Of a stretch of DNA of 64,000 bases, positions 2,120-63,654 are shown piece after piece. The notes beneath the pieces are model-generated. The model ran no database searches, was not told where the DNA came from, and saw only the letters and a list, made by a program, of their open reading frames with translations. This stretch comes from Rhopilema esculentum (lineage: Eukaryota), in NCBI RefSeq assembly GCF_013076305.1, contig NW_027019299.1, forward strand, positions 9,744,265 to 9,808,264, in the 5' to 3' direction. Every line of letters starts with the position of its first letter. Positions within the stretch are counted from its first letter, which is position 1. A program made the translations under genes and the position numbers.

Positions 2120-5100
2120 ATGGCTACCACTACTGCGGTGACAGATTTCAAGGTTGAGGCAACCAAAGTAAAATGGGATCCAAAGTCAGTGGAGATCCGA
2201 ACAAGGAGTGTCGAAAAGACGCTAGAGCCTTTAGTTCATCAGGTAAGTGGCCTAGGCCATTTTCTTCGAGAACAAACTAGCGATGTGAAACCAGTTTCTT
2301 ACAATTCCTCAGTTAAAAATTAGGACGTAAATAAAGATTTCCACAATCTTTCTGCAATTGATTTATAACGTTATGGTAAGTCTTTCTCTTGCCAATCCCT
2401 TCTGATTTGTTGTCAAGTATGACTCATGCGCGTGTCCTTGAAAGATAATATTGTTGTTCTGATTCTTTGAAGGATCACTTTTACACTGAGACCCTTCCCA
2501 AAGCTTAAAGTTTGCTCTGTCGATTTTTGCGATTGGAAATTCATATTTTAATTACATCTTCATTATTTTTTCAAAGTAAAGGTATTTTATAGTTCATTAT
2601 TTGGAAGCCGATCGTAACGTTTTATTTCATTGCCCTGAGATTAAATTATCAACATTATTTTTAGACAAATATCACAAATGTTTATTTTTTCGCAATTTGT
2701 TCAGCATATTGAAAGTTTATCGAAAAAGAGCAATGCGCTTAAAACTTCATGTTTTCTCAATCAGAATGACTCATAGTAAAAGATATGTCACCACATCTTC
2801 AGAACTTTACTTGTTTTTGTTGGAAGATTTTATTTTCAGAACATTTAGCCGGAAAAATAAGAATTTTCTTATTTGCTGAGCGTGACCGTGACCGTGAATT
2901 TCGAAAAGCAATGAGTCCCTTTTCTAATAAGGCACTTCATATTTGCATCCAAAAACCAAAATCCTATTGCAAGCATTCCAAACTTTTCTCAGATATTTCT
3001 TTTGTAATTTCTGTCAATATAGTGGTTAATCAAAGGATTTTGTTATTAAATTATTCCATTGACAATTGTTTCTATGCCATATTTGTGTTCCAGTTGCAAG
3101 AGTAATAATGCTCAACCCAGAATCCATTTTTGCTAAATAAGAGGATGATATTCCATAGAAAGATATACAGGAACAAAGCAATATGACGACGAGAATCCAA
3201 TGTCACGAGATAAATTTTTCAAAATAAATTAAATTTAAAGAATATACTAATATTTCCCCCCGGCATACAGGGCTTCATCACTTCATAACAACACACATTG
3301 CAAGATTCACAGAATCCGGCGGACAGCCTATCCTGCAGTTCTTCCTTCTCACACATGATATTTCATAGGATGTCACTAAATTACAAGTTATGATACTTCT
3401 GCTCTTTGAAATATGCCAGTAATTCGCAGACCCAGTAACATCATTCAATGAGATTTTTTCTTCAATGTGTAATTCACTACCAATGAGAAATCAGTCTATC
3501 TTGAAAGAGGCCTATTATAGATTTGCACCTTCATGACCTTGACCCTATTTACCTATACTGCCTACAAATTTGGCAATTGGTTTTTTGCCAATTGCATCTT
3601 CAGTAAAGATGCAGCTTGCATCTTTCAGTTTTTATTGGTAATGGTTTATGGCTTTTAGGATGTAGTTGCATTTCTACAAAAATATGAAATCAGTAAGATG
3701 TTGACTAAAGGTTCAGTGGTTTTGACCAACTGAGATGAGATGAGCTTGTTCTGTGAAAGTGAGATGAGAACCATTGAATTTTTCCAGAGTTACTTCTATC
3801 AATGTTTCTCTTTCCTTATAAGTTTAATTGGTTTTTATAGTGCACATAATTTTGGCACCTTTGATTAATTTAATTCTAGAAACAAGATTTGCTGCTCTAT
3901 GAGGTCCCCTACACTTTGAGGTCCTTAGGCAATTTTCCGCTTTGCCCCATTTTAAAAACCCTGGTTTTGACTCAGTGTGGGTTCTGGGAACATCAGAGAA
4001 TAATATGGATCAATAAGCTTCAAAACCTTTACCTTGGCTCATTCTTACTCGTAGTGAATAAAAGAAGTTAGACTTGTACCTCGCCATCTACTATCTTGTG
4101 TCTTTTTTGTAGCATGAGTTTGAAAGCCATTCTGAGCATTTATTTACAAGGTGCTGGTCTGTGGTGTTTTATTGATGCATGAAATCCTAGCAAAACTAGT
4201 AACTAAGCTTTATGTTATCCTGCAACTGATAGGTTACATCACTGGTAAACCACCAAAGAAAGTCAAAAACAGGAAAATCAAAGAAAGCCACCCAGTTGGC
4301 CAAAGAGATTGATGAAGCCACTGAAAGGCTTGTTATCGTGGGTGAGAGCATTGCAAAAGACTTCCCTGAAATTAAAGAGCCAATGCTAGAAGCATGCAAA
4401 GAAGCAAGATCTGCTGGTAACTTTCATGATTTTTACTTTGCTTTGATTCTGATTTGCTTTGTTTCATGATTTTTACTTTGCTTTGCTATAATCATTGTTC
4501 TTGTCAATGTTTTTGTTTAAAATGATATTTTCAGTATATTTCCTATTAGAAAATACAATAACCTATATCTTTTACCCTCACATAATTTCCATCTTTCTAC
4601 AATTTATTTCTCAAAATCCAACAAAAGTTAATCCTGTCCATATATATACATCAAATTACATATGAGCGATCCTTTATATGATATCTATGTCTTTTATATT
4701 TATTCTTAACTTTATTCTTCATTGTATGTATATATAAACATTTTCCACAACAGATTGAAAGCAGGACTGTAGGAAATTACTTAAAAATTGATGTTGGCTC
4801 CCACTTCAGACTCTGCTTGATGTTTGTTTTAATTTTGTCATTGATTTTGTTACTGTTTATTTATTTGCAATCTAAAGGAGATACAATGAGGGCAGCCTCA
4901 AATGATTTTGCTGCTGATCCATGTTCATCTGGAAAAAGAAGTGTAATGATAAGAGCTGCCAGAGCACTTCTTGCAGCAGTCACAAGGTTGCTATGTGTTG
5001 CAGACATGGCTGATATTTACAGGCTTCTTGCCACTTTGAAAATGGTGAGATCATCTTTCAGGCATTTGTATAACTTTTCAAGTAACAACATAAATGTAAG

Positions 5101-8100
5101 AGCTTGATTGTGAACTTATGACCTGCCATTTTAAGATGTTTTTACAGTAAGTCACACTTTCAAAAGATGTTTGCATGTCCTTCTTTTGCAGTTTTTTACC
5201 TTTGGTTTGTTATTTGCCTTTTTTATAAGATATATATCGTTAAACTGAATCAGTTATTTAGCAAAATTAAGCCTTCTAGTTTAAGTAGACCTTCTAGTTC
5301 AGATAAAATTTTTCAAAATATTTCTGCTGAACCTTATAGTGAAGTATAATTTGAGGCATTTACATGGCCAGGTTGAAAAAAGATTGAAAGAGCTTGATGG
5401 TGCAGAAAATACAGATGAGTTGTTGAAAAGCTTCAAGAATTATGGAGATGATTTGATGAAACTTGCAAAATTGTCTGGAATTAGACAAGCTGTATGTATA
5501 TCATCTTAGCTAGTTTTCAGATCTATTTTCCTTTTGTTCGGTTTTTTGGGTTCTTTTTATATTGAAGTTTTTCATCCCCATAAAAAAGCAGAAGCTGAGT
5601 GTTGTACTGACTTAATGTGAAATACTTGATTAATTCTGAAAATCTATGGAAATTGTCAGAAGTCTCAATTATCAATTTTATGTTATTTGCTGTATAGAAC
5701 AGGATGTTTCTATGTTGCTACTTTGAGTATCACACCTAATGTTGCATCAAGTGTGAAACTAGGAGTAGCAACTTGAAACCGCCCTGTTCTATACACCAAA
5801 ATGCTTGTACAGCTCTGCCGACAGCTTTGAACACTTTTTGACAGATCAGTAAACAGTAATTTTTATTATTATTTATTTTATACCAGGGATGATCCTTTTG
5901 CTACTTAGTTCAAATTTATAATCATTTATAAATGCTCTATATGTATAAATAGTATATTAGCAATTATTATATACAGGATTTGAAAGATCCAAGAAAGAAA
6001 GATGAAATGGCTGCTGCCAGAGCAACTTTGAAGAAGTCAAGCCGAATGTTACTCACCACATCAAAGGTTTTGACATTATGAATTTTATGCTGTGTCTTAA
6101 ACTAAGAAAAATGAAAATTTTATTTTATCCTGCCAAGTTCACCTATTCCGATGAAGAAGGGCCTTTTTTCCTTTGAGAATCAGACAGTTAATTTCTAAGT
6201 TTTATCTAGAAAAGCTCTTTTTGGCCAAATGATGTGCAACTGAATTCAGAAATATTTTTCAGCCCTATCTTGGTAACATTTCAAGTGACAATTGCACATC
6301 TCAAGGAATTACTTAAAAACATAAGCAACACCCACAGCCAACCTGATTTGTCTTGCCTCAGCACTTACCTTAGTCTCACACATCTTTGCACCTTTCTTTG
6401 CAATACATCGCTATCAAGAAATCTACCACCATATTATTTATATGTACATTCCAACAGGCATTTGTTCGACATCCAGAGGTGGCATCGGCAAAACACAACC
6501 GTGATTTTGTCATGAAGCAGATCAGTGATGCTGTAAAGGCAATATCAGGAGTTGCTCAAGCTGTAGGTGAAAGTACACCATCACCTTTTGAACAAGCTGG
6601 TGCCTTGGCTAAAGCCCTTACAGACTTGCTGGTAAGTCTAGTCGAAAGAGTCCCTTGACTTAATTCATCGTATTGTACTTTTTTTATATGTAGGTAAATT
6701 TAAGCCTGAATCGCTGGAAAATTCGAATGAGAACTACTACTGGCTAATATTTGAGTATTTGTTGCTGTTGCGCTGAAAAGTTGATGAAAGTAACAAAAAA
6801 GGAACATATAGAGAATATGGGAAGACTTTTTCTTCAGTTGTGACATTGGCACCTAAGTTGGAAAATAATTCTGAAGATTGAGCATGTTTTCTTTTAGGTT
6901 TTTTGTAATGGTACATATGGAGTACTTAGATGTATTTATTTTCAGCTTTGGGTAATTAATTGGGGTTTATCACAAAGAAGCGTATGTTGGATTTTTGGGG
7001 TTTCATAAAATATTTACTAAAATAGATTTAAAGAGACCACTGAGCAATATAAAAATTGTTTTTGTATTACTGTGACATGGAAATTTACCGTTTGAAGCAT
7101 TGCGTCAGAAGAAAAAAATTGGCTACCTTTTCCGTCATAAAAGAAATTCACAAGTACAGAATCATCTTGTTAGAAATCGATTTGTGGGCCTTTGACCTAC
7201 TGATGGCAACATCGAGTACTGGCATATCAAATTTAGTTATGAGATTCCGATTGAAATCACTTTCAACGAAATAAATTAAACAATAACAATGTCTTTGCTA
7301 TAACCCAATCAGAGAGTTCTATTGTGAAGGGGGTGTCCATCAGGGCGTGTAAGCATTCCCAACCGTGCTTTTGTCTCTCTAGCCGCTGTCTTTAATTACT
7401 AGAAATACAGTTAAGCCACGACAAACCTGTTGCAGTGAACGTTTCTTGACGTTTCATAGCTACTATCTTAACAAGAGCTAAAACAAAAGGACGTTTTGAT
7501 GTGCAGGCGCTGCTATAAATGTCATTAAAAATATTTAAGTACTGTTTTGTAGCCTCCAATTTTCTTCCATTAGGCAATGATTAACAGAAAGCCGGCTGAT
7601 TTCAAAGAAAAGACAACACGCGTGGAGCTAGAGAAACAATTGGATGAACTTCTGGCTGCCGCAGCCCGATTGGCAGACTCTTCTTGCACACGTGACAATA
7701 CACGTGACAGGTTGATTGCTGAGTGCAACAATGTCAAACAAGCTCTACAGAATCTCATGGACGAGTATATGAAACATGTCAGTTCTTATCAAATTTTTCA
7801 TATTACTAATCTGTTGCCAATAGGATAAAAAGTTTTCAAGTAAAATTATAGGCAAACTTTTAAAATTCTAGAGAGGATTTTTTTATATTCATTGTATTAT
7901 CATTTTGGAAAAGGACATCTTATTCACAGGAACAACTAAGTATGCATAATGCAAGGCTTTCTTTTGCCTTACACGAATATTGTAAGTTCGAGGTAGGAAA
8001 AAAGAGAACAAAACAAGTACAAGAAGAAATAATGCAAGACTAGTCATAAATTCAATGAAATTTGTATTTTATGTAATGTAATGAAACTTGTTTTGATCGA

Positions 8101-11100
8101 AAATATTTCGATTCAAATTTTTTGTTGTTCTTAAACAGGCCAAAGGAAAGCCCAATGACGTACCAGGTGCAAAAAATCAGTTGGAAAAGAAGGCAAGGGT
8201 TCTTGGAAAACAGGTTAGAGGAAGATTTCCATTTTTGATCTCGTGTGAATCTTTTAGCGAAAACACCTTTCTTTATTTTAACATGAGTGCAGCGAATCAG
8301 TTATTTCAAAGTTTACTACAATGTAAATTTTAAGCTCTGCTAAATATTGTTTGCTTGCGCGAAGAAAACCTCTGTCAATTTACATTTATTTGTGTATTTG
8401 TTGATAATATCTGGACTCGTTCATTCAAGGACCATGTAGCATATTAGGAACTTAGGGGCTGAATCTTGATTTTGGGGGGCTAATCTTGCTAAAACCAAGG
8501 CAAAAGCGATTTTCAAAATTATTTGGGGGGGGGCTACTCAGCCCCTAATTTCCGTGATTCCTGTGCCTAACACCATATTGTCAACATCATGATTGTAATA
8601 TGGGACGTAAGCTGAATAGATTATGACATAACTAGCAAAAATGCTTTGTGAGGGTCTGCTATTTCTTCGTCTTTCCATGCCATTTGCAAGAGACAGCCTG
8701 TTGAAAAAATTGCCACTCGTACTGCTTATCTGCTGTTTGATATGTAGTGTGTATACATAAGGAAATATGTAGCAAGTCTCTGGTTTATTTAGATCATATA
8801 AGTTTTTGCGAAAAAAAGGAACCTTGCAAGTTACTTGTAGAATGTACAACTTCACCATATTTTCTTTAAAAAAGAATTGAATATGTTCTTAACATCTCTT
8901 TAACTAGTTTTCAATATTTCTTAGCTGCGGAAAGCGATTATAGATCATGTGTCAGACTCGTTCTTGGAAACCAATGTTCCATTGATGCTTTTGATCGAGG
9001 CTGCCGAAGCTGGAAATGAAAAAGAGGTTAATGAATGTGCTGTTGTCTTCACTGAACATGCTGCCAAGCTTGAGGAGGTAAATATTACATGTTTTTCTTG
9101 TTTAGTATCGCGTGTTTAGCAATCTGATTCTATTTCCAAAAGATGTAATGTATTTCTCGATGGTACAGCAGCTGATGATTGAATTTTTCTGATATTCTAT
9201 AACTTTTTCGCATTGTACAGGTGGCCAATCTTGCTTGCTCAATGTCGGATAATGTTGAAGGTGTAAAGATGGTGCGCATTGCTGCCAATCAGCTTCACTC
9301 ATTGTGTCCACAGGTAAGCCACGGATCTTAAGTTTTGGGTGCCAGGGACAAAGCCCCTCTCTTGCTTATGGCTATCAGTTGCTTAATTACTAGATAATAC
9401 TGTTTGTAAAGTAAGAGCGCAAGATGCTTTAGTAAGTAAGATCTACAAGGATTCCATAAATATACTAAAATGCGTGCGGTACAATATGATGAATTTAAAT
9501 AACGATCAATGTAAGTAAATTGTACCAGGAAAATTTTTTTTGAAATAATTAACGACATTTCGAGCAAACCCGTTATCAAGTGAGTTAGAAAAGCGACTAT
9601 AGAACTAAAAAATGTTACGGGCTATGCTCGAAACGTCGTTAATTATTTTAAAAAAATTTTTCCTGGTACAATTTACTTACATTGATCGTTTTTTAAGATC
9701 TACAAGGTTCTCTATGACAGTGTTTGGCACTTTTTAAGGGTTAAGAATGAATTTTCTTAAGCAATAAATAGATTTCCCTTTCACGTAATCCATTATGTTA
9801 TGTACCAAAGGTTTCGATCCTCCTCACAGTTTCTGCCTTTAATGATATTGATACACGGAATAAAAATGACGTCATGATTGTTTACAATTCACCAGGTAAT
9901 AAACGCCGCCCGCACGCTAGCAGCTAGGCCTAGAAGTAAAGTTGCTAAGGAAAACATGGATGTGTTCAGAGATGCTTGGATCAATCAAGTGAAAGTGCTT
10001 ACTGAAGCTGTTGATGACATTACAACAATAGACGATTTCCTCGCCGTCTCAGGTAATCTGAAGTTGCTTGGATTTTTCTTTAAAGCTTTTTGGACAGGCC
10101 GACGCACGGTCGTAGTGTCTCAGCCAAAAAAATCATTTAATAAGGAAATGTACGATTGAATCACGTTAAGTCGTACCCCGGATAAGTCGAAATTTAAATA
10201 AATCGGACAGACTTTCAGTTCCCATTAGATTTTCCTACCCTATTCTTGTCAAAAGTCGTACCCCGGATTAGTCAGACCTTTGCTAGGTCAGACCATTTCC
10301 TTAACCCCTTGAAAGTCTGACTTAACAAGATTCGACTGTATTTGTGACGTGAACAAACTGTGAGACAATAACAATTCTTACAATTTTCCTGTTCACAAAT
10401 TTTCAGCATGTTGTCTACACGCAGCTGTCGTCCTAATACCCAGTTTTTGTTATTTCTTCCATGAACTATCATTTTTTCAGAGGCTCACATCCTTGAGGAC
10501 GTGAATAAATGCATTGAGGCTTTGCAGCAAGGAGATCCAGAGACCCTCGACAGAACGGCAGGCGCCGTACGGGGACGCGTTGCTCGTGTTGACAACGTCG
10601 TTTCTGCGGAAATGGAGAACTATGAAGCTGGGCCGTACACGGAAACCGTCCAAAGAGCTGTTCACATAATGAGGGAAAGCAGTAAGTATTGCTAGAGAAC
10701 ATGGTACTTGCACGAAGTTTCTTACGTTCGAACAATTACATATGCTACAAAGTTTCCTGGAAGCCAGACTCATTGGTCATTCGCATCTTTTTTGTTGGAT
10801 TCCGTCACTCATGGTCGATCATAGACATTCGTTCGACATCGATAGTAGGTCTTTAATTTAAAGCGCGAATATACCATCTCAATATCACCATATCTTAAAT
10901 TTTGTTCACAAAGTTTGTTCCATAGCGTACGCAAAATAACAACAAATTAATCCTTTTAGTTATGCCGCAGTTTGCTGAATATGTTGACACTGCAGTTGAT
11001 GCACTTAACCAAGACCCAAATGCTGAATTTGATGAAAATGCTTTCATTGACGCATCAAGACTGGTAAAAGACTTTCTTGATATATATTTAATTCAGCACT

Positions 11101-14100
11101 TGTTTTGTGTGTGTTCCTTATTCATTAAATGAGGAAGTTTCAGTTTCCAAAAAGACTTGTAATTGACCCACAGTTTTCTTAAAGTCATTAGTCGAATATA
11201 TTAAACTGAACCGCTATACTAATGATGGAGCTTTTCCTTGTGGTATATATTTTCTAAGAATGATAGTATACAATAACATTCTATCTATATTATATGCAAG
11301 AGAAATATTTCCTTATATTGTTTGTAGCCTTCACAGTTGCTCTTTCAACACCCATTATCTTTAACCGCCCCCTCCCTCCTTACGACTCCCTTTTGGAGTG
11401 ATAAAACTCCATTAACGTCATCAGCTTTAAATAGAAAATTTAGCATATTCTCTTTTGGTTGCTGTAGTTAAACAGTATCTTTATTATGATTACGGTAACA
11501 TAATATCTTTCTCTATTCATTTCCATCCCAGGGCCCAAGCCGCGAACTTGAAAGTGGGGGGGGGGGCAAGGCTTATGAAAGTGGAGGCCAAGACTAGCAA
11601 AAGTGAAGACCAAGGCTTCTTTCACCTTTGTTTATAGCTTTGAAATTACCTGCTTTTTAAAAAGGCGGGGGGCCATGGCCACCCCGGCCTTCCTGTGGGT
11701 GGGCCCTACATCCATAGGAAGTTAAATCTCCAGCTATAATATTGAGTTTTGTGTCCAGTTGTCAAGTATTTGTTCTCTTTACTCTCTTTTCCCTCTAGAT
11801 ATACGAAGGCATTAGAGACATACGACGTGCTGTTATGATGAAAAAGGTAGCAGTTATGTTTCTTATCCACATAATCGCAATCATATACTGATGCTGTCAA
11901 ACGTTCTTCGATTGGTATCCTTCTAAGTCTTTGTTCAACACTTCTTAATTGGTGTGGTATTTAAACGGATACTGTCACCTTTGTCTATAGTTTACGGAGT
12001 CATGCATTATCAGGTTTGAAGTTTGATGAGGGAAACAGATAAATGCACGAGTCATTTGCTAGTCTTATTATCCGGATCTTGCAATTTTGAAATATCCAAT
12101 AGCAATTTTCTTTGCTTTACATTCATCTGTTTATAAGTTTGACTCTATAATTAATTTTGACACTATAGTTCCTCAGTTAGTGATTTTCCAAAGACCAGGC
12201 CCTCATGATTTCATCACAAACAGCATACATTAACTCTCTGTATGTTTCACTTCCTTTAGCTTTATCATGTAGCTTTTTTAAGCTCTTTTTTGCATTTCTT
12301 TCAACAAACAGAAACCAGGGGACGAAGACTTTGATGAAGAAGAAGAAATGGAGGAACAAGGAACACTTCTGACGTCACTTGCTGATGCTCAAACCAGACA
12401 GAGGGAAAAGGCTGCCTATGAGCAATTGAAAGCTGGAGGTAAGAGCCACTGGTGGCATTTTATGACGGGCGATGATAGTTTTTTTACAGTGGGATGACAC
12501 TTGTGCAGCGTACGCTAGAAAGAATTACTAAAATGGATAGCAACTATAACACAACTCAACATTAATCTAGGTCCAGTATGTTATGTCAAGTAATCTTTGT
12601 TGCGGTTTGGTCCAAAATTGATATTTTCAATAATTAGGATTTGGCTCAATCTATTAAAGTTGCCTAGGCCTTTAGGCTCTTAGATTTGCGGATTTACCAG
12701 CAACATGAATTTTGGAGCGAGACTGTGTGGAAACAAGAAGGAATTATAAATGTGTATCAACAATCTAGGCTTTAAGGAAAGCTTGAATAATCTTCACATT
12801 TTCGAATTCTTTTTCATATTTACGTATTTTTGCCATAGGTAAAGTGCAGTTTGAGATTCACAGCGAGGGTGGTGATGACCCTGGCGTAAAAGGAGAGGCC
12901 TCCATTATCGTCAACGGAATAGAATGTTGTCCAAAGCGCAAAGGCCACAACATTGTTGTCCTTGATGAAATTGGAAATGTTGTTGCAACAAGGTCTTTCA
13001 ATACAGTTGAGGCTGCGGAGGGAATGTCCATGGCTAAGTTCTTGGAAGACATTCCTGAGGAGCACATTGCTCTCATTGCAGTTCAGGATACTACAGGTTT
13101 GGGCTTGAGATAAACGCTACTGATTATTCAAGATTCATTTTAAGAGTCACTTTGAGAGACTCTTATTGAACATAAATTTGATACTGTATGTTTTGTGATG
13201 TAAATCGTACTTGATTTGTTATGCGTGCATTTATGTTGACTCGGCATCTGTCATTCGACCTTTGCTAATGCTTTATCTCATTGAAGTGAACAAACTGCAT
13301 AGTTCTTAAGTTGAGTTTATTAATTCATCTCTAGGGAAAGGAGTGGAAAAGGCGGAAGCAGCCTTGAAGAAACTTGGTGCTGTTGAACCAATGGATCCAG
13401 GTTTCAAAGGATCATGGGCCTTTGCTGGATTCAAAGGAGCTCACCATACTAAAAACTGGGTAACACAGGTTACCAGACCTCGTTACCACGGACCAGCAAT
13501 GGTTGCTGATATGATAAACACACCTGCGGCTGATCAAGGTACAAAGGATAACCATATGAATGATTTTTGAAACTGCAATTGAACTCGCTCTTTGTGTATT
13601 TTCAGTTCATCTGAATGTAGCAAATTAGGTGATTAATTGTCTCGTTGTTGGTGTGTTAGGCCGACGGAATTTTTTAGACGAGGTTTATTGTGATAACGAG
13701 ACTACGTTGGGATGTTGACTTCTTGTTAAAAGTCCCTAGATGACATGGCAAAATTGACACACACGCATAGGTCTGCAACAGAATAGTGCAAAATGTTTGA
13801 CAACCATGACTGTGTATGGATTGCTTAATAAAAGCTCGTACCTAGGATTAAAGAGATCATTTTTCTATCGAAAAGGACCCAGTGCGTGAATTTGTTTTTG
13901 TAACGATGATTAACTGATGTGTCTGAAATATGCTGAAATATACCTGCCTGTTAAATTTCCCTTTCGTATTGAATTTGTTTTGCTTCGTGATTTCACACGC
14001 TGAATGCAATATACCACTTTTTCGTTGTATTTAACACCCTTTCTCCAAAATATAGGCAAAATAAAAGTGGAGATTTCGTCAGAGGGCCTAGACGACCCCG

Positions 14101-17100
14101 GCTATGCCAGAATAGCGTCTATCAAAATAAACGGAATCGAACGAAGTCCCATGGTGCGTGGTATGAATGTGGTCATTCTAGACGCGGCTGGAAATTACCT
14201 CATGTCGAAGAACTTTGATACAGCCGATCCAACTCGCGGCAGATCAGAAGGACAAAAAATGGCGCAGTTCTTGGACGATTTGCCTAGTGAAAGAATGGTC
14301 TGTGTTTCATCGTTAGAAGCCACCGGTAAGTAGGCCAGTTATTAAATTTAGCATAAAACACTTAAGTAGCTGGTAGACTTACTCAATGAGCCACTGTTCC
14401 GCTACTGCCTTATTTCATTGAAGCTACAACAGATGACATTCTGTTATAGCGTTCGTGAATTGAGGCTGTAGCGAAACAGAGGCTCATGGAGTATGCTGGA
14501 ATATTTGACTAAAGAAATTCTAACAAAGACCTTGATTTCGATTTCATTCACAAACATTCACGATTTATGACGATGATAAGATTAATTTCAATTTTTCAAT
14601 GTTTTACTAGATTACGCTAGATATTTCATAAATGAAGCTGGCAGTGTCTATGTATTCTGCTTTAGCTTAATCAACTGCCTTTGTCTGAGTCTATTGATGA
14701 AACGTCCTGTTGCTTAACTCTTCGCAGGTGAGGGCATGGGTGAAGTCAGAGAGGCGCTCATACGAGTAGGTGCCGACGAAGACAGCGAATCTGGAACTAA
14801 AGGATCTTTCGCCCTTCTTGGTTACACCGGCCCTGAGAAGGTCGTTTGGTTAAAGCAAGTCCAAAAGCCTCGTGGGCAAGGCCCTGCCAAAATCATGACG
14901 TTCGTTATCACTCCAGAAGGTGCCGAGAGACTGAGTAAGTATCTTTTTATTGTGTCGGGAAGTTTATTTAAAAAAACAATTCAATGTCCTTACGAATTTT
15001 AGTAGAAAGTTGGATTGCCAGGTTGTTGTTATATTCTATGTTCAGATGACCATTTATTTCCACTTTTCCTACCAGCCTTCAAATTCCCTTATCCTTTTTC
15101 AGAATTAGGAGAAGAAGATGTTTTCCAAGATTACGAACCAGGTACATTCTCAGAGTATGATGATTTCCAAAAGCAAGGTGAAAAAGAATTCGACCAAAAT
15201 TATGGTACGATGAACAACAAAAGCGCACGCGTGAGTTTCCTTTTGAGGGTTTTTCTTCTCCTTAGGACTGACTATTTTGCCACGATGAAAACCTTGTCCC
15301 GTTTTCTCATTCCCATTTGAAGGATTTAGTCTACTGTGAAATCCGTACTGTGAAATTCCTTACAAACTGAACAGAAATCATTTGGTCGATAAAGGTTTTA
15401 ATCAAGAATTTTGAGATTTAGAAATGCACATGCATGAAAGGGCAATAGGCCTAAAAAGGTGCACTTTTCCAAATGTTCTAAAGATGAATTCTCTCAAAAC
15501 GTGGATGTACATATGCCATTGGTGACCCTGGCTTCGAATCTCCCCGACTTTAATGTTGTTTTAAATCATCTTTGGGTAGTCTTTTTTCGTTAATACTGAT
15601 GACGCTTGTATGCTCAAGCAAAATAATGTTCCGTGTCATCTTTTTTAAGTCCATTATGAGAGCACTACCAGCAGAAGAGAAGGCGAAAATCGCCAAGCTG
15701 AATGAAGGCCTTCGAATGGAGAAGAACAGGCTGGTAACTGAAGTGAGCAAATGGGATGACCAGAGTAATGAAATCATTGTTTTGGCAAAGAAAATGTGTA
15801 TGATAATGATGGACATGTCTGATTTCACAAGGTACGTTCATCAAAGGTAGCATCGATAATGACTTTATTTTGTTATAGAGTTTCTTAATTAGGACGTAAT
15901 TTATTCTCAGAGTGGTTTGATCGGTCATGTGTTTGTGTTTCGATTCCCACGCAACTTTTTATCCTTCGATAGACTTCGTTAACTTCCTTCATGCGTTTTA
16001 TTAATGTCACATTTGCAAATATAATTGAGAACTTTATTTATTTTATGCTATCATATATTCATTCATTTTTTTGTTAACCAGGGGAACAGGACCGCTGAAA
16101 ACAACCATGGATGTTATTAAGGGAGCAGAGGTACGTTTGAGTAAAGAATCTGATAATTATTTTTCTTAAAACATGCAGATTCTGATCCGGGAAAAAGTAT
16201 TACCTGATGTAAATAGACATTTCTGCATGCGATCATAGAAATAAATCGCTAGCTTTTTTGTTACAGAGAATCGCAAAGATGGGACAAGCATTAAACAAGC
16301 TGGCTGGAGACATTGCCGAAATGGTGAGATTTGCCGAATTGTTTTTTGAAGATTGTGAACACCAGATTTTTTAATCATTATTTCTATTTGCGTTTCTGTT
16401 TGGCTGTCTGTCATTTCTCTTTTTAAACCATTTTTTGTCCTCTTATTTGATTCAAATTCATAAATAGCACTTGCTGGCTAAATGCAAAATTTCCAGCACG
16501 AGCTTGCCCATCCATAGAGAGGTTGACGTATTTTGGTTAAGACGTAGCATTAGACCAGTTTGTAATAATAGGCAGATATCTTGTTGCCAGGCAAATGTCA
16601 AGAATCGATATTGTTTATGATTTAAAGATAAAAACTTACTTTAGTTTTGGTTGTATAATATTTTGTTTTATCTCCAATTTTAGTGCCCACACAGCTCCAC
16701 GAAAAACGATTTGTTGGCCTATCTTCAAAGGATCGCCCTTTACTCTCACCAGCTTACGATTACGTCACGAGTCAAGGCTGATGTACAGATGATAAGTGGA
16801 GAGCTTGTTGTCTCTGGGGTATGCCTGTTGTTTTTGGTCTTGAAATGAATGCATAAATCCATGTAAACTGAAGCACAGATCATACCAAGATTATCCTTTT
16901 TGCATCACAAATGCAATTTGTATGTTTTAAGATGCATTTTGTTGTTTTACACTTTTTTCAATGGACGTGTGTGTTTCTTGCTTATTGCACGAAACGGTTT
17001 TAGTTGCTGTATTGTCTTACTTCGATACTGAATTGAATTGATAAAATGCGTTTACATGTATCTGTTAACGCATCTCTTTGTGGGCCTGGTCTCTTTGTGA

Positions 17101-18337
17101 TAAACACAAGCTCGAGGTTTTTATAAACTGCATTGCTCATTATTTTCCCTAGATGAATGGTTGATTGTTTACTCGCTAATTTTGTTTCGGTTTCATTCTA
17201 CGTTCGGTTTTATGAATGCAGTTAATGTTGCTGATTTATAACTTAACATCACTATGCAATCGCACAAAATACAACTCGAGAATAATAGATATATGATCTA
17301 GTAAAATGCCTAGTTTTAAGTGTCACTTTTGACTTTTAAATCTCCTTTAGCTGGACAGTGCAACGTCTCTTATTCAAGCAGCAAAAAATCTTATGAATTC
17401 GGTCATTCTCACTGTCAAAACATCATATGTTGCCTCAACTAAATTCAGGAAGGCTGACGTACGTATCCTTTATATTCCTCTCTGTCCAAATTCTTTTCAT
17501 TAAATTTCAAATGGCTCGACCTTTCAGCGTGCCTTTTTCTTTGGAAGTATTTGCTGTAGCCCACTCCGCGACCTATAACCATAAATCATTTAACACGAAC
17601 GTTTTTTAATGCAAAAGAAAACATGATTGTCATGCTTTGATGCTTGAATTTTTTATTATTTCAGGGTGTGGTTTTCGTTAATTACCTTCTCCTAAGCTAA
17701 CTGAGCACCTGTTGCTGAGAATACTGTTCATAAATTAATGCCAGTCAATTTTCAAAACATTTTTGCTAGTTTTCGGCTCTGGTCAACTTCATTTATTGTT
17801 TTGATAACATTGTCTCTTTGTGTTTTTGCCTTTTTAAGCAATCAAAAATTAAAATTGAATTATTTAATTAAAATTACTTGAAAAATAAATTGAATTCCCG
17901 GAAATCGTCAAGATGCGCAGTATAGACTAGTTTAAAGAATTTGTAAGAATTAAAAGGCAATTGTAAAACAAATTTATTTGCAGCACGGTCAAATAATTCT
18001 TAAGTATGAAGCTTTTTAAGACTTATCAATTAATATAAGTTTGAGTGGACTTCGGATCATATGTAGTAGTTTTTCTTCACTTTCTGGAGGTGATTTCTAG
18101 GTTCCTTTAAAAATATGTTTAGCTAGATAACGAATTTTACTTCACTTTGGTTAAACAAATAAATTCGCTGAACGAGTCCCTGCTTTATTGTAGAAACCAA
18201 TTGTCAGCTGGAAGATGAAAGCACCAGAGAAGAAGCCGTTGATCAAAGTCGATATGTCTGACACTCGGATGACCGTCCGCGGTACGGATACCCAACAAGG
18301 CCCGTCACCAATCCAACAGCTGAGCGAGATCCAGTGA
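2120..18337 (+). CDS. CTNNA: alpha-catenin (CTNNA/vinculin-superfamily) gene, 26 coding exons, 1253 aa including an inserted tandem ILEI cassette
   Basis: Hand-spliced exons (GT-AG, phases consistent; total CDS 3762 nt = 1254 codons with stop). E1 2120-2242; E2 4233-4416; E3 4878-5044; E4 5372-5491; E5 5977-6066; E6 6458-6631; E7 7574-7777; E8 8139-8213; E9 8925-9077; E10 9221-9313; E11 9896-10052; E12 10481-10681; E13 10960-11063; E14 11799-11846; E15 12312-12438; E16 12839-13096; E17 13335-13538; E18 14056-14325; E19 14728-14934; E20 15103-15230; E21 15650-15831; E22 16082-16130; E23 16267-16323; E24 16684-16818; E25 17351-17458; E26 18194-18337 (stop TGA 18335-18337). Translation matches alpha-catenin throughout. 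Examples: MATTTAVTDFKVEATKVKWDPKSVEIRTRSVEKTLEPLVHQ (human MTAVHAGNINFKWDPKSLEIRTLAVERLLEPLVTQ); AASNDFAADPCSSGKRSVMIRAARALLAAVTRLLCVADMADIYRLL; LADSSCTRDNTRDRLIAECNNVKQALQNLMDEYM; IDHVSDSFLETNVPLMLLIEAAEAGNEKEV; SKWDDQSNEIIVLAKKMCMIMMDMSDFTR; DLLAYLQRIALYSHQL; C-terminal SWKMKAPEKKPL. Confidence 0.9.
8447..8548. repeat. small MITE-like element with ttaggggctga / tcagcccctaa terminal inverted repeats and internal G-runs
   Basis: ttaggggctgaatcttgattttggggggctaatcttgc ... tttgggggggggctactcagcccctaa. 11-bp perfect TIR. Lies in alpha-catenin intron 8. Confidence 0.4.
9501..9690. repeat. perfect long inverted repeat (hairpin/foldback MITE): 66-bp arms around a loop of about 58 bp, inside alpha-catenin intron 10
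   Basis: Left arm aacgatcaatgtaagtaaattgtaccaggaaaatttttttttgaaataattaacgacatttcgagca. Right arm tgctcgaaacgtcgttaattattttaaaaaaatttttcctggtacaatttacttacattgatcgtt is its near-exact reverse complement. Confidence 0.7.
12839..13096 (+). CDS. alpha-catenin exon 16: first half of ILEI/FAM3-like (GG) domain copy 1; symmetric phase 1-1 exon (258 nt)
   Basis: Translation (G)KVQFEIHSEGGDDPGVKGEASIIVNGIECCPKRKGHNIVVLDEIGNVVATRSFNTVEAAEGMSMAKFLEDIPEEHIALIAVQDTT(G). Compare FAM3C [28 protein letters not shown]...[54 protein letters not shown]. Acceptor AG at 12837-12838, donor GT at 13097-13098. In frame with upstream alpha-catenin exon 15. Confidence 0.8.
13335..13538 (+). CDS. alpha-catenin exon 17: second half of ILEI-like domain copy 1; symmetric phase 1-1 exon (204 nt)
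   Basis: Translation (G)KGVEKAEAALKKLGAVEPMDPGFKGSWAFAGFKGAHHTKNWVTQVTRPRYHGPAMVADMINTPAADQ(G). The motif GFKGSWAFAGFKG parallels FAM3 GFRDNWVFCGGKG and GWRDTWAFVGRKG. Acceptor AG 13333-13334, donor GT 13539-13540. Confidence 0.8.
14056..14325 (+). CDS. alpha-catenin exon 18: first half of ILEI-like domain copy 2; symmetric phase 1-1 exon (270 nt)
   Basis: Translation (G)KIKVEISSEGLDDPGYARIASIKINGIERSPMVRGMNVVILDAAGNYLMSKNFDTADPTRGRSEGQKMAQFLDDLPSERMVCVSSLEAT(G). RGMNVVILDAAGNYL..KNFDT..FLDDLP aligns to FAM3C [30 protein letters not shown]. Acceptor AG 14054-14055, donor GT 14326-14327. Confidence 0.8.
14728..14934 (+). CDS. alpha-catenin exon 19: second half of ILEI-like domain copy 2; symmetric phase 1-1 exon (207 nt)
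   Basis: Translation (G)EGMGEVREALIRVGADEDSESGTKGSFALLGYTGPEKVVWLKQVQKPRGQGPAKIMTFVITPEGAERL. Paralogous to exon 17 (K/TKGSFALLGYTG versus FKGSWAFAGFKG). Acceptor AG 14726-14727, donor GT 14935-14936. Confidence 0.8.
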
Positions 18338-46059: not shown

Positions 46060-49000
46060 ATGCAGGTAGAAAAAAGGCAGGCGTTTGACATAAAGTCTTT
46101 AATTGGAAGTCCAGACGAAAGCCCGAAAGAGGACAAGTGCAAACGCAGCAAGGAAGATTTCTCTCGAAGGGAGTCAGGCTTCTTGAGTGAGCAAAGATTG
46201 AAACCGTATCAAAGAGATGGTTGCGACTCAAAGAACGAAAGCTATCGTTCTAGGATTCTCCCAAAGGCAATTCGCGGAGATTATTTGCGAGGCTCTGGAC
46301 AAATAAAGCCTGCATGCTTTAGAGAACATCCAGATATTGCAGCGTACTGTTCGTCAAAGACATTTCCTGTTCCCCATAACTCATGTTGCTTTAGAAATAA
46401 TGAAGAACTTAGCCGCAAGTACATTGCGTTACCAAGTTATAGCAGAACTGACCCAATTCTAGCTAAACACACAATCCAGCCTTGTCAGCAGCTATTTCCA
46501 AGCCACCCTGGACCACAGGACATAAGATCATACTATTTTCTGCAGCCTGGTAAGAAAGTTTTCAATAATCTGTATCTACCTCTGTTTTTTAAGTATTACA
46601 ATTGTTTTAATTCATTAGCTTAATCACTCTTCATAGCTATCCTCTTATATACTTCTTATATCTTCGTAGCTATCATACTTTCTAATACGCCATTTTATGG
46701 GTACGTTATCAAACAGTCCTCTTATATTTTTGTTGACTTATAACCATCACATTTTTTTCCAATTTATATCTTCATACCGCAAAATTAGACTATTGGTTTG
46801 TTCTGTGAAACCGTAATTATGTTCCTAATAGAAAACATGTCCATTTTTGCCGAGATTTTTGCCTTAGAAGGTTTTTTATTGTTTTTAAGTTTGCTTTTAT
46901 TGCTTTGTGAATATCTAAGGGGTCTTAATTTCTATAAAGGGAAAAGTTCTCTTAATTGAAATGTTTCTTGTTGTAGAAAGAATTAACAGGAAGAGTGAGA
47001 GATTTAGATTTTTGACAAAAAACCCATAAACGTTATTTTTTTCGTAAATTTAAACATAACATAACTGCACTAGAACAGAAAAAACAGAAGATGAAATTCA
47101 ATAATTTATTCAATGCTAAGTGTCAACTTATGCTACTTTAAGATTATCTGGTCTTCTCCTCTAAAAAAGGCATTTTAAGCCTGATACCTAATTGCAAAAG
47201 ATTTTAAGTCTGCTTCTGAACAATGGAAGAATTCGTTTTATAAAGCTTTCGAATCTTTCCCTCAAAATGTAAAAATCATATACATAAATAGAAAACTAAG
47301 TTATATTTCCAACAAGATCAAAGGTTTTTAGACATTTAGTAGGCTAGCTTTATACGGGTTATTCGCCCCTCTGACCCCCTCTATCTACATCATAGCCAGT
47401 GGTTTGTTGTTGTCAGATATATGGTGATTGCCTAATTTTTACTAATTTACTAATTTTGTACCCATTGAAGGATAGATGTTGCATTAGATTGTGATAAAAT
47501 TGAAAATGATAATTTGAGTGATAATCAACTTTATGTGGTCTGAGTGAATCCAATAAACCTTAATGATATTGAGTAATGAGTGCTAACTATGGTGATTTTC
47601 ACGATTGGTTGGAAATTTGATTAATGTAATTGTCCAATTATAAATTGTTACGACCCTTTGAGGTTAGGATATTTATACTTCTAGCCATTGTGAATGCCTT
47701 CAATTTGACGTCATTGCAAGGAAAATACCAGGAACTTTTCAGTATTAACATGTTGTGCCAAATTTTTTGGTGAATCATTGACCCAAGTGTATTCTGTACC
47801 AAACCTGTTTTTGTAAAAATTGCAAAAGGTGCAAGATTTACGTAGCAGTAACTTGTAATCATCTTTGCTGATAGCTGATACCATACCATTCAATCCATGT
47901 TGGAACATATGACGAAGCTGTTTTTGTAGCACTTTAGGAACAATATCATATGCAGAGGTCAAGAATTTATTTGTTTGATAATTGAGCGACACATGTGAAA
48001 GTGCTTCACCTAGGGAAGCAACTACTGGCAAGGAAAAAACTGCATTGTTGTCCCCAATCGTCCAAAATCTGAAAATCCATGCCCTGACCTGACCTAACTT
48101 TGAAATCCGCATCAGGTCATTCTTTCTCGAGGATGCTTTTTGGAGAAAAAGTTGTTAAAAGTAACAATTGAAATGTCCAATACATCGCGCTGTAAAACAG
48201 TGAACAAGACAGTACAGAAATACTTTTAATTTATTTTAAAATTAACAAAGAATATACCGTGTAGCTATAAAACATTGCTTACTTGATTGCTTACTTCGCA
48301 TTGCCCCAGAATAAAAGTAAACTTTATTTCCAATTTTAAAGAGACTTTCCTTTTGTTTTAGATCTGATCAACAATTACAGTATACCATATCCACGCCCCG
48401 ACCTAATGGCAGCACAGAATACAGGTAGAAGAATTCGGACTACGTTCACCCCATCACAATTAAATGTATTAGAGAAAAGATTCAAAGCTAGTCATTACAT
48501 AGTTGGGGATGAAAGAAGGGAACTTGCGCAGGAGCTTCGCCTAAACGAGTCTCAGGTAAGAACCACCTTGTCACTAGGCCCACCATGGTCCCACAATGGA
48601 GCTCTACTGTCACCTATGTTCCCATGGAATAAGCTCCTACAATTTTTGCTCGCATTGCCACTGAATTAACCTTGTGATGAGAAAGACATCGGATTACCAA
48701 ACAGATACGAGACAAACCAAACTGGGCTATGAATGGCATTCTTTCTGTTTAAGATCATTCTCAAGACAATCCACCAATCGATACAGCTGGAAAGAGCGGA
48801 ATGGTTATAATTAAAGTTTCTCAAGGAAAATTTAGAAATGAATATACTTGATCTTGAATGGAAAGTAAATAGTCGTTTGTTTCTCCCAAAATTAAAACAT
48901 AATTTCAAGGAAGCCATCGCTAGAATATTTTCGCTGAATTTTTTCGAAATAAAAATGATTTATTTGTAATATGCTAATTTACTAACACTGCCTAAGTATT

Positions 49001-49389
49001 GTAGCTAATTTAGACTGATACTTTTTCAAAAACAAATTTGACCAAGAACATCCATAAGTGAAATACAACCAAACTCTTCAGGGCCTTTGCCCTGCCCCCC
49101 CCCCCACTTTTTACAAAAAATAGAGTTTTTCAAATTTTCTATTGCCCCCTCCATTTTCTAACCTATGTCGGAACCCATGCTCTTTGTTCATTGCTCAACT
49201 AAGTTATGGTTCTTTCTTTTTCAGGTAAAAATATGGTTTCAAAACAGACGAACAAAATATAAGCAAGAAAAATCTTTCGAAGAAGTGGGAACTGGTAAGG
49301 TAGGAAAACGAAAAGGAGAGCACCATGTTAAGAAATGGCAGTTGGATACAAGCTTCGTCGAAACCACAACTAAAAATGGTTTATTATAA
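46060..49389 (+). CDS. EMX: Emx-family (empty spiracles) homeobox gene, 3 exons, 282 aa
   Basis: E1 46060-46549 (MQVEKRQAFDIKSLIGSPDE...; Emx N-terminal FTIESLV-like motif; ends phase 1). E2 48362-48555 encodes homeodomain residues 1-44 (GRRIRTTFTPSQLNVLEKRFKASHYIVGDERRELAQELRLNESQ). E3 49225-49389 encodes [43 protein letters not shown]...stop TAA. Compare Emx2 [58 protein letters not shown] and its C-terminal KKKGTHHINRWRIATKQ. Confidence 0.85.
48362..48555 (+). CDS. EMX: Emx exon 2: N-terminal 44 residues of the homeodomain
   Basis: Acceptor AG 48360-48361 is phase-compatible with exon 1 (1 + 2 nt gives Asp). Donor cag|GTAAGA at 48556. The intron splits the homeodomain between positions 44 and 45. 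Confidence 0.8.
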
Positions 49390-52580: not shown

Positions 52581-63520
<10,940 letters not shown>

Positions 63521-63654
63521 GTATGTTTGTGAAAATAAGGAAGATTGTGCATGATGGGCTTTTTTCGACAGCAATTCTAGGGTTTTGCAGTTATCTACTT
63601 CATAACTGATCGTGTTGCGTGATTATAAAAAAGGTACTCTTGATAAGATACTAA

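Follow-up and report, generated by a model that had tools for sequence, protein, structure and literature searches.

In bilaterian alpha-catenins, actin binding is controlled by force and allostery and is not constitutive. The closest described counterpart of the gene studied here is the alpha-catenin found in Nematostella vectensis, a sea anemone; the hinge of this protein carries an insert with two ILEI (PF15711)-like regions (Clarke et al. 2016, Mol Biol Evol 33; PMC4948710). In that report, the insert spans residues 638-1021 (its size is given as 362 aa) of a protein of ~139 kDa, and it constitutes a 37-kDa protease-resistant domain with a stable fold. Binding to both beta-catenin and F-actin was demonstrated for this orthologue. 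Deletion of the insert weakened F-actin binding more than 10-fold: the full-length protein bound with a Kd of 0.8 uM, and the protein lacking the insert with one of at least 12 uM. The insert was called unique to N. vectensis (PMC4948710). We found nothing in the literature on ILEI, FAM3 or PANDER domains in a catenin beyond Clarke et al. 2016.

We examined an alpha-catenin gene in the window (the whole 64,000-nucleotide stretch of DNA analyzed here) by building a spliced model with P0003, an unannotated transcript protein, as the guide. The coding region lies on the forward strand (2120..18337, these being the positions of start and stop) and comprises 26 exons totaling 3762 nt, all of whose introns are GT-AG; it encodes 1253 aa. 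The rebuilt model thus agrees with the original prediction in start, stop and protein length. The window protein and P0003 are 89% identical (1122 of 1258 aligned columns). A tRNA scan of the window found none.

The part of the gene that encodes the hinge is interrupted by a cassette of four exons. Upstream of it, exon 15 (12312..12438) encodes the end of the M region and an acidic upstream hinge (KPGDEDFDEEEEMEEQ...EQLKAG) and ends in phase 1; over residues 630-672, amino-acid identity with P0003 is 88%. Exon 16 (12839..13096) encodes the N-terminal half of ILEI domain 1, and exon 17 (13335..13538) its C-terminal half together with an invariant inter-domain linker (I-TPA). The N- and C-terminal halves of ILEI domain 2 are encoded by exons 18 (14056..14325) and 19 (14728..14934), respectively, with copy 2 split by its intron at the same alignment column as copy 1. 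All four of these forward-strand exons are phase 1-1, have AG/GT borders throughout, sum to 939 nt and share the frame of exons 15 and 20, bearing out the canonical junctions and the continuous reading frame that had been claimed for exons 15-20. The resulting cassette is 313 aa long (residues 673-985 of the window protein). Downstream, exon 20 (15103..15230) encodes a second acidic hinge, which is poorly conserved: residues 986-1028 have just 51% identity with P0003 and a nonsynonymous difference (pN) of 0.246. The actin-binding domain, which begins in exon 21 (15650..15831; SKWDDQSNEIIVLAKKMCMIMMDMSDFTR), is 96% identical to that of P0003.

Searches against Pfam identified two families in the full protein. 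Vinculin (PF01044; E 3.4e-284, 945.9 bits) matched in two stretches on either side of the insert, and ILEI matched with an E of 5.5e-30; insert residues 673-985 follow the stretch that covers Vinculin model positions 1-636 and precede the C-terminal Vinculin stretch. The 313-aa cassette by itself matched ILEI PF15711 in two stretches (E 1.5e-31). When each copy was searched alone, copy 1 scored 64.9 bits and copy 2 scored 47.6 bits, against a curated gathering cutoff of 27. These two ILEI-domain matches are far beyond chance. Sequence matches of the cassette in the PDB were FAM3B (5.6e-08), the POMGnT1 stem, FAM3C and FAM3A.

The best 120 matches of the full-length protein were all alpha-catenins, and an NJ tree, built without vinculin and catulin outgroups, put it within the cnidarian alpha-catenin clade with a bootstrap of 100/100. 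Judged from sequence, the window protein is best read as a medusozoan alpha-catenin, from a cnidarian that falls outside the hydrozoans sampled and probably belongs to a jellyfish lineage.

AlphaFold2, supplied with the 313-aa insert and a 12-sequence alignment, returned a model with a pLDDT of 87 and a pTM of 0.77. Foldseek matched this model to the POMGnT1 stem, FAM3B, FAM3C and FAM3A; the entries retrieved included 5ggj, 2yoq, 2yop, 8c6i, 5lc2 and 7ecq, all with a probability of 1.00. Target TM-scores were 0.66-0.77 for the single-domain entries and 0.10 for the 1270-residue TMEM2 ectodomain (8c6i). The nearest solved fold was that of the carbohydrate-binding POMGnT1 stem. The insert is thus predicted to have a FAM3/PANDER-type fold. 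Taken together, the Pfam scores of the separate copies, the PDB matches and the Foldseek results uphold the original prediction of two paralogous, in-frame ILEI domains resembling FAM3B and FAM3C in the linker that leads from the M domain to the actin-binding domain.

How widely does this architecture occur? The order Vinculin-ILEI-ILEI-Vinculin was found in Hydractinia, Clytia, Actinia, Actinostola, Stylophora, Pocillopora, Acropora, Porites, Montipora, Oculina and Dendronephthya. It is present in Hydrozoa, Octocorallia, sea anemones and many stony corals, as well as in the window's medusozoan lineage; among the matches listed, no bilaterian alpha-catenin had it. Because the insert occurs in both major cnidarian branches, the statement that it is unique to Nematostella does not hold. 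Nor can the pair of domains be regarded as undescribed, as had been supposed when this gene was first noted: PMC4948710 had already described the insert, the pair of ILEI-like regions within it and the way it affects F-actin binding, and the architecture is also found in public NCBI/UniRef records of many cnidarians. The window contributes a further orthologue of an insert that was published in 2016 and can be recognized in public annotation.

The insert is well conserved within this group. Its length is steady (310-314 aa), and ~80 of its positions are invariant among the cnidarian orthologues; the inserts of the sea anemones Actinia and Actinostola are colinear with that of the window at 48-50% identity. 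In the comparison with P0003, in which synonymous sites were saturated, pN was 0.042 for ILEI-1, 0.071 for ILEI-2, 0.068 for the N and M domains and 0.035 for the actin-binding domain. The insert shows nonsynonymous divergence as low as that of the remainder of the protein and is under purifying selection. From its position, size and ILEI content, and from the two sea-anemone orthologues, we infer that the window and Nematostella inserts are homologous.

The explanation that best accommodates these observations, and in which we have strong confidence, is that the window encodes a medusozoan alpha-catenin with the cnidarian hinge insert, that the ILEI pair would act as a spacer, and that its four exons belong to the mRNA. 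A folded ILEI pair (residues 673-985), held by two acidic linkers, would connect the M domain to the actin-binding domain, most likely as a rigid, structured spacer. Such a spacer would prevent the N and M domains from packing onto the actin-binding domain; with this packing prevented, F-actin binding would be constitutive and free of autoinhibition. By analogy, the Nematostella mechanism may operate likewise in the window's species, the analogy being drawn from one in-vitro study of one anthozoan.

It may be asked whether a spacer is all that the ILEI pair provides. Neither ~80 invariant residues nor selection as strong as that on the M domain is an obvious requirement of a passive spacer, and a specific binding role may therefore exist in addition. 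A rival reading is that the pair is a ligand-binding module, either lectin-like, as in the POMGnT1 stem, or protein-binding, that recruits a partner to the adherens junction, with the effect on actin being secondary. The closest solved fold, with its carbohydrate-binding function, argues for it, as does a cnidarian conservation (pN as low as that of the M domain) that exceeds the apparent need of a spacer. The sugar-binding triad of human POMGnT1 is reported (Kuwabara et al. 2016) to consist of R129, D179 and R207, the numbering being taken from the alignment of the cassette with the PDB sequence. However, this triad is conserved in neither ILEI copy: its positions correspond to K35/D84/K111 in copy 1 and to R189/E/K in copy 2, and R189 alone does not vary across the cnidarian orthologues. 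No partner is known, either. We consider it unlikely that ligand binding is the primary role, and the spacer remains the preferred reading.

P0003 (1257 aa), the product of a close relative, is a continuous ORF on intron-free contigs of 4.1-5.8 kb from at least 23 samples (JGI metatranscriptome and SRA RNA-seq), and its precomputed Pfam order is Vinculin, ILEI, Vinculin. A second transcript product, P0002 (MERC, ERR1712141_612), runs unbroken from ILEI-2 into the actin-binding domain; the junction from exon 19 to the downstream alpha-catenin sequence is present in both P0002 and the P0003 cDNA contigs. In a second genome (ENA ERZ25067901, L011/L012), the four exons have the same borders and lie between exon 15 and the exons of the actin-binding domain; the borders of exon 16 are identical in L012. 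Exons 16-19 are part of the alpha-catenin mRNA, the transcripts being those of a close relative, and the joining that had been predicted is borne out by contigs that span the whole protein.

Could these exons nevertheless form an alternatively spliced cassette, with a canonical ~940-aa alpha-catenin produced in some tissues and the ILEI version being one of several isoforms? All four exons are phase 1-1, meaning that the skipping of any or all of them would preserve the frame. However, there was no cassette-less form among the members of the P0003 cluster, nor, obvious fragments aside, among the 15 listed members of each of three coral clusters; the full-length members were 1229-1317 aa long. 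The full-length search likewise returned no ~940-aa product highly identical to the window protein. Because the sequence collection keeps only the longest product per gene, the absence of a cassette-less isoform is a weak test; on balance, alternative splicing of the cassette seems quite improbable to us. The notion that the ILEI exons are a separate gene nested in an intron of alpha-catenin and encoding a secreted ILEI protein, or that the arrangement is a chimera of assembly or annotation, has next to no probability and is rejected on the transcript and comparative evidence: cnidarians and sponges do have secreted two-ILEI proteins, but the cassette lacks its own start codon, signal peptide and stop, its frame runs on with exons 15 and 20, the relative's intron-free cDNA contigs cover the entire protein, and the layout recurs in the second genome and in more than 10 annotated cnidarian species.

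The secreted two-ILEI proteins do bear on the cassette's origin. An exhaustive search of representative sequences with the insert yielded 443 ILEI relatives. Fused alpha-catenins surfaced in it solely as single-exon fragments, other sequences presumably being the representatives of their 50% clusters; the long matches were multi-ILEI proteins without Vinculin, such as a five-ILEI protein of the cyanobacterium Microcoleus. The nearest non-catenin relatives, from Oscarella (P0010) and Clytia (P0073), were secreted proteins that have signal peptides and two ILEI domains. The Oscarella protein had 38% identity with the insert, the top of the range for the pair. Four phase 1-1 exons and nearest relatives of this kind are compatible with an origin by exon shuffling. 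The cassette probably arose once, before the split between Anthozoa and Medusozoa, either through exon shuffling, with a secreted two-ILEI gene as the donor, or through the shuffling of a two-exon unit that was then duplicated. More specifically, the insert may be a shared derived cnidarian trait, gained a single time before that split when phase 1-1 exons of a secreted two-ILEI gene were shuffled into a cytoplasmic junction protein; we advance this version tentatively, at somewhat less than even confidence. If it is true, alpha-catenin would as a rule be coupled to actin constitutively, and possibly independently of force, throughout the phylum, and the ILEI fold would serve a conserved function inside the cell, perhaps together with a specific partner. 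The occurrence of the insert in both cnidarian branches alters the argument made in PMC4948710 on whether allosteric control of actin binding is ancestral or derived.

How, then, does the window protein compare with known systems? In both the window and Nematostella, the insert lies between the M domain and the actin-binding domain and has two PF15711-like regions. The two are similar in size: the Nematostella insert is 362 aa in a protein of ~139 kDa; that of the window is a 313-aa ILEI pair plus linkers in a protein of 1253 aa. The folded nature of the former was established by protease resistance, whereas that of the latter is predicted (pLDDT 87). The window's lineage is medusozoan, whereas Nematostella is a sea anemone; the window orthologue is known from sequence and a model, the biochemistry being that of Nematostella. 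Cnidarian NCBI/UniRef records annotated as "catenin alpha-2-like" or "ILEI/PANDER domain-containing protein" (e.g., Hydractinia symbiolongicarpus P0158, Actinia tenebrosa P0162, and those of Porites, Acropora and Pocillopora) have the architecture of the window protein, with inserts of 310-314 aa and full-length identities of 53-59%; none exceeds 65% except P0003. Bilaterian alpha-catenins (alphaE/N/T-catenin and Drosophila alpha-Cat) have orthologous N, M and actin-binding domains and are 55-61% identical across the aligned part of the query, which is roughly half of it. However, they are ~890-930 aa long and have only a short flexible hinge without PF15711.

FAM3A-D and the secreted two-ILEI proteins have their domain family and fold in common with the alpha-catenin insert, and Oscarella P0010 and Clytia P0073 also have a tandem two-domain layout like that of the insert. 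These two proteins have a Cys pair in an SEGCDDxGxxGCG motif, where the alpha-catenin copies have G or L plus a deletion. We considered the loss of the pair as a mark of cytoplasmic adaptation and set this idea aside; the loss is not diagnostic, because two secreted Nematostella ILEI proteins also lack the pair. The secreted FAM3/ILEI proteins have signal peptides, whereas the copies in alpha-catenin lie inside a cytoplasmic protein: the window protein has no N-terminal signal sequence, and its ILEI domains do not stand alone. It carries the ILEI domain but falls outside the FAM3 family. With its exon structure, an intron position common to both copies and secreted relatives, it offers a concrete and testable case of the recruitment of an extracellular-type domain into a cytoplasmic mechanotransducer.

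Within positions 12000-15600 of the window lie five open segments on the plus strand, each bounded by AG and GT: alpha-catenin exon 15 (12312-12438) and the cassette exons 16 (12839-13096), 17 (13335-13538), 18 (14056-14325) and 19 (14728-14934). Spliced in silico, they form a single open frame (...KPGDEDFDEEEEMEEQGTLL...EQLKAG/GKVQFEIHSEGG...TPEGAERL); the other two frames of the join are rich in stops. The four cassette exons total 939 nt, or 313 codons. The whole gene model was rebuilt with a full-length relative protein (P0003) as a guide. It has 26 exons, introns that are all GT-AG, and a coding sequence of 3762 nt that begins with the ATG at 2120, ends with the stop at 18337 and encodes 1253 amino acids. 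The original prediction had given exactly this start, stop and length, and its canonical splicing and continuous frame hold throughout. Downstream of alpha-catenin is a homeobox gene (46060-46623, 48340-48560 and approximately 49200-49300, plus strand), presumably of the Emx/Vax/Not type; its first exon begins with an eh1-like motif (AFDIKSLIGS), and the homeodomain is encoded in later exons (RRIRTTFTPSQLNVLEKRFKASHYIVGDERRELAQELRLNESQ/VKIWFQNRRTKYKQ). An open segment at 63301-63606 (plus strand) resembles the C-terminal helicase domain of a DEAD-box RNA helicase and is probably one exon of a gene running off the window.

Is the cassette part of the alpha-catenin mRNA? Direct transcript evidence that it is comes from a close relative rather than from R. 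esculentum. The first homologue search returned a 374-aa MERC protein (P0002, accession ERR1712141_612) that reads continuously from the second ILEI domain, across the downstream hinge, into the actin-binding domain. A member of its 90% cluster, the 1257-aa P0003, is 89% identical to the window's protein over the full length; its precomputed Pfam annotation lists Vinculin, ILEI and again Vinculin, in that order. P0003, indexed in 48 blocks, is encoded by one unbroken ORF on contigs measuring only 4.1-5.8 kb, which come from at least 23 samples (JGI metatranscriptome and SRA). These contigs are cDNA-derived, because 25 introns would not fit alongside a 3.8-kb ORF within 4-6 kb. Alternative skipping of the cassette in R. 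esculentum would keep the reading frame and is a less likely possibility; none of the relevant clusters contained a product lacking the cassette. The unbroken frame, the relative's cDNA contigs and the comparative data together rule out both an assembly chimera and a nested independent gene, the latter raised by the original prediction against itself.

Another genome assembly (ENA ERZ25067901) has all four ILEI exons as well, with identical splice borders, on contig ctg35614 (loci L011 and L012); they lie between exon 15 of alpha-catenin and the exons of the actin-binding domain. The region occurs there on two contigs, ctg35614 (3.1 Mb) and ctg34632 (145 kb), seen in L012 and L013, with nearly identical gene layouts, probably as uncollapsed haplotypes or a recent duplication. 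In this assembly the intron between alpha-catenin exons 13 and 14 holds a retroelement fragment, an ORF of 139 aa that weakly matches a reverse transcriptase (RVT_1; L011 16975-17394, L012 1427-1846).

The presence of two in-frame ILEI domains in the alpha-catenin hinge was confirmed. In Pfam, the 313-aa cassette matched ILEI (PF15711) in two stretches (E 1.5e-31); taken separately, its halves reached 64.9 and 47.6 bits (curated cutoff, 27), and the two copies (ILEI-1 and ILEI-2) are 41% identical. The full protein matched the Vinculin family (E 3.4e-284) in two stretches on either side of the pair. PDB sequence matches of the cassette were FAM3B (5.6e-08), the POMGnT1 stem domain, FAM3C, FAM3A and, weakly, TMEM2. 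An AlphaFold2 model of the cassette, made from an alignment of 12 cnidarian sequences, had a mean pLDDT of 87 and a pTM of 0.77. Its only significant Foldseek matches in the PDB were the POMGnT1 stem, FAM3B, TMEM2, FAM3C and FAM3A (probability 1.00; target TM-scores of 0.66-0.77 for single-domain entries). The domain call of the original prediction, for which an HMM search and structure prediction had been proposed as checks, and its structural interpretation are correct.

The best matches of the full-protein search combine PF15711 with PF01044; they come from Hydrozoa (Hydractinia symbiolongicarpus, Clytia hemisphaerica), sea anemones (Actinia tenebrosa, Actinostola), the stony coral Stylophora pistillata and the octocoral Dendronephthya gigantea, and include unnamed transcript-derived proteins. 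Lower-ranked alpha-catenins (molluscs, insects, amphioxus, hemichordates, brachiopods and others) had PF01044, and none among the matches listed had PF15711. Members of the unnamed clusters include NCBI/UniRef entries for Porites, Montipora, Orbicella, Oculina, Pocillopora, Stylophora, Desmophyllum and Acropora; some such cnidarian records are titled "ILEI/PANDER domain-containing protein". Across the 11 orthologues examined, the insert always measures 310-314 aa, with 48-63% identity to that of the window and approximately 80 invariant positions, including I-TPA of the inter-domain linker. These orthologous inserts are closer than the copies within one protein (41%), which argues that the ILEI duplication is older than the Anthozoa/Medusozoa split. 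In a neighbour-joining tree (873 well-aligned columns), the window's protein and P0003 joined Hydractinia, Clytia and P0157 with full bootstrap support (100 of 100) and branched outside that trio; the window gene is therefore that of a medusozoan outside the sampled hydrozoans, a placement compatible with Scyphozoa, Cubozoa or Staurozoa.

How might such a module have entered the hinge? All four insert exons start and end in phase 1, and an intron splits each ILEI domain at the same alignment column. The closest non-catenin relatives from an exhaustive search include secreted two-ILEI proteins of the sponge Oscarella pearsei (P0010; 38% identity, signal peptide) and Clytia (P0073), secreted ILEI proteins of Nematostella (P0050, P0066) and of corals (Stylophora P0338/P0339, with PAN/Apple-domain Pfam matches) that bear other extracellular-type modules, and multi-ILEI proteins without a Vinculin domain, such as P0012 of the cyanobacterium Microcoleus. 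The exon phases and secreted relatives would fit a hinge that acquired an extracellular module by classical exon shuffling. Five tandem ILEI domains occur in P0012, P0013 (with a weak PI-PLC-X match), P0017-P0020 (P0019 with a ChW repeat), P0023 and P0025, which score against the cnidarian insert as high as animal ILEI proteins do; the fold is abundant among proteins with multiple repeats, of which at least P0012 is bacterial.

Selection was assessed from nonsynonymous differences (pN) between the window gene and the P0003 cDNA; synonymous sites are saturated (pS 0.76-0.88). The pN values were 0.042 for ILEI-1, 0.071 for ILEI-2, 0.068 for the N and M domains and 0.035 for the actin-binding domain; they place the ILEI pair under purifying selection as strong as that on the canonical domains. 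The pair is flanked by an upstream hinge of 88% amino-acid identity and a fast-evolving 43-aa downstream hinge (51%; pN 0.246).

This degree of conservation would also accommodate a further, specific role in binding. Of the matched folds, that of the sugar-binding POMGnT1 stem is closest to the insert. We take its sugar-binding triad to be R129, D179 and R207, a numbering consistent with the cassette-PDB sequence alignment; the triad is conserved in neither ILEI copy, except for one arginine in copy 2. Judged by these residues, a POMGnT1-like lectin function is not supported.

The original prediction held the insert to be undescribed. This was wrong, since it appears in public annotation and in the work of Clarke, Miller, Lowe, Weis and Nelson (Mol Biol Evol 2016; PMC4948710), who cloned Nematostella vectensis alpha-catenin and described a "large (362 aa) insert" in its hinge, with two PF15711-like regions, recovered as a protease-resistant fragment of ~37 kDa. 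Their full-length protein bound F-actin with a Kd of 0.8 uM; deletion of residues 638-1021 weakened binding more than 10-fold (Kd lower bound, 12 uM), and they concluded that the insert relieves an autoinhibited conformation, rendering actin binding constitutive. Their domain-organization results also present the insert as a feature of N. vectensis alone, which the alpha-catenins of other cnidarians lack. That claim, for which no later correction was found in the searchable literature library, is contradicted by RefSeq/UniRef records from more than 10 cnidarian genera and by ERZ25067901; it probably reflects the incomplete gene models of the time. The window contributes an orthologue from a medusozoan; together with the database evidence, it shows an insert spread across Cnidaria rather than confined to Nematostella. 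The pair pTM of 0.77 and the invariant linker suggest a fixed relative orientation of ILEI-1 and ILEI-2. A compact two-domain unit, joined to the M domain on one side and the actin-binding domain on the other by an acidic linker each, would be bulky enough to block the N/M bundles from packing on the actin-binding domain, and actin binding would then be constitutive; by analogy, the best-supported mechanism for R. esculentum is the one shown for Nematostella.
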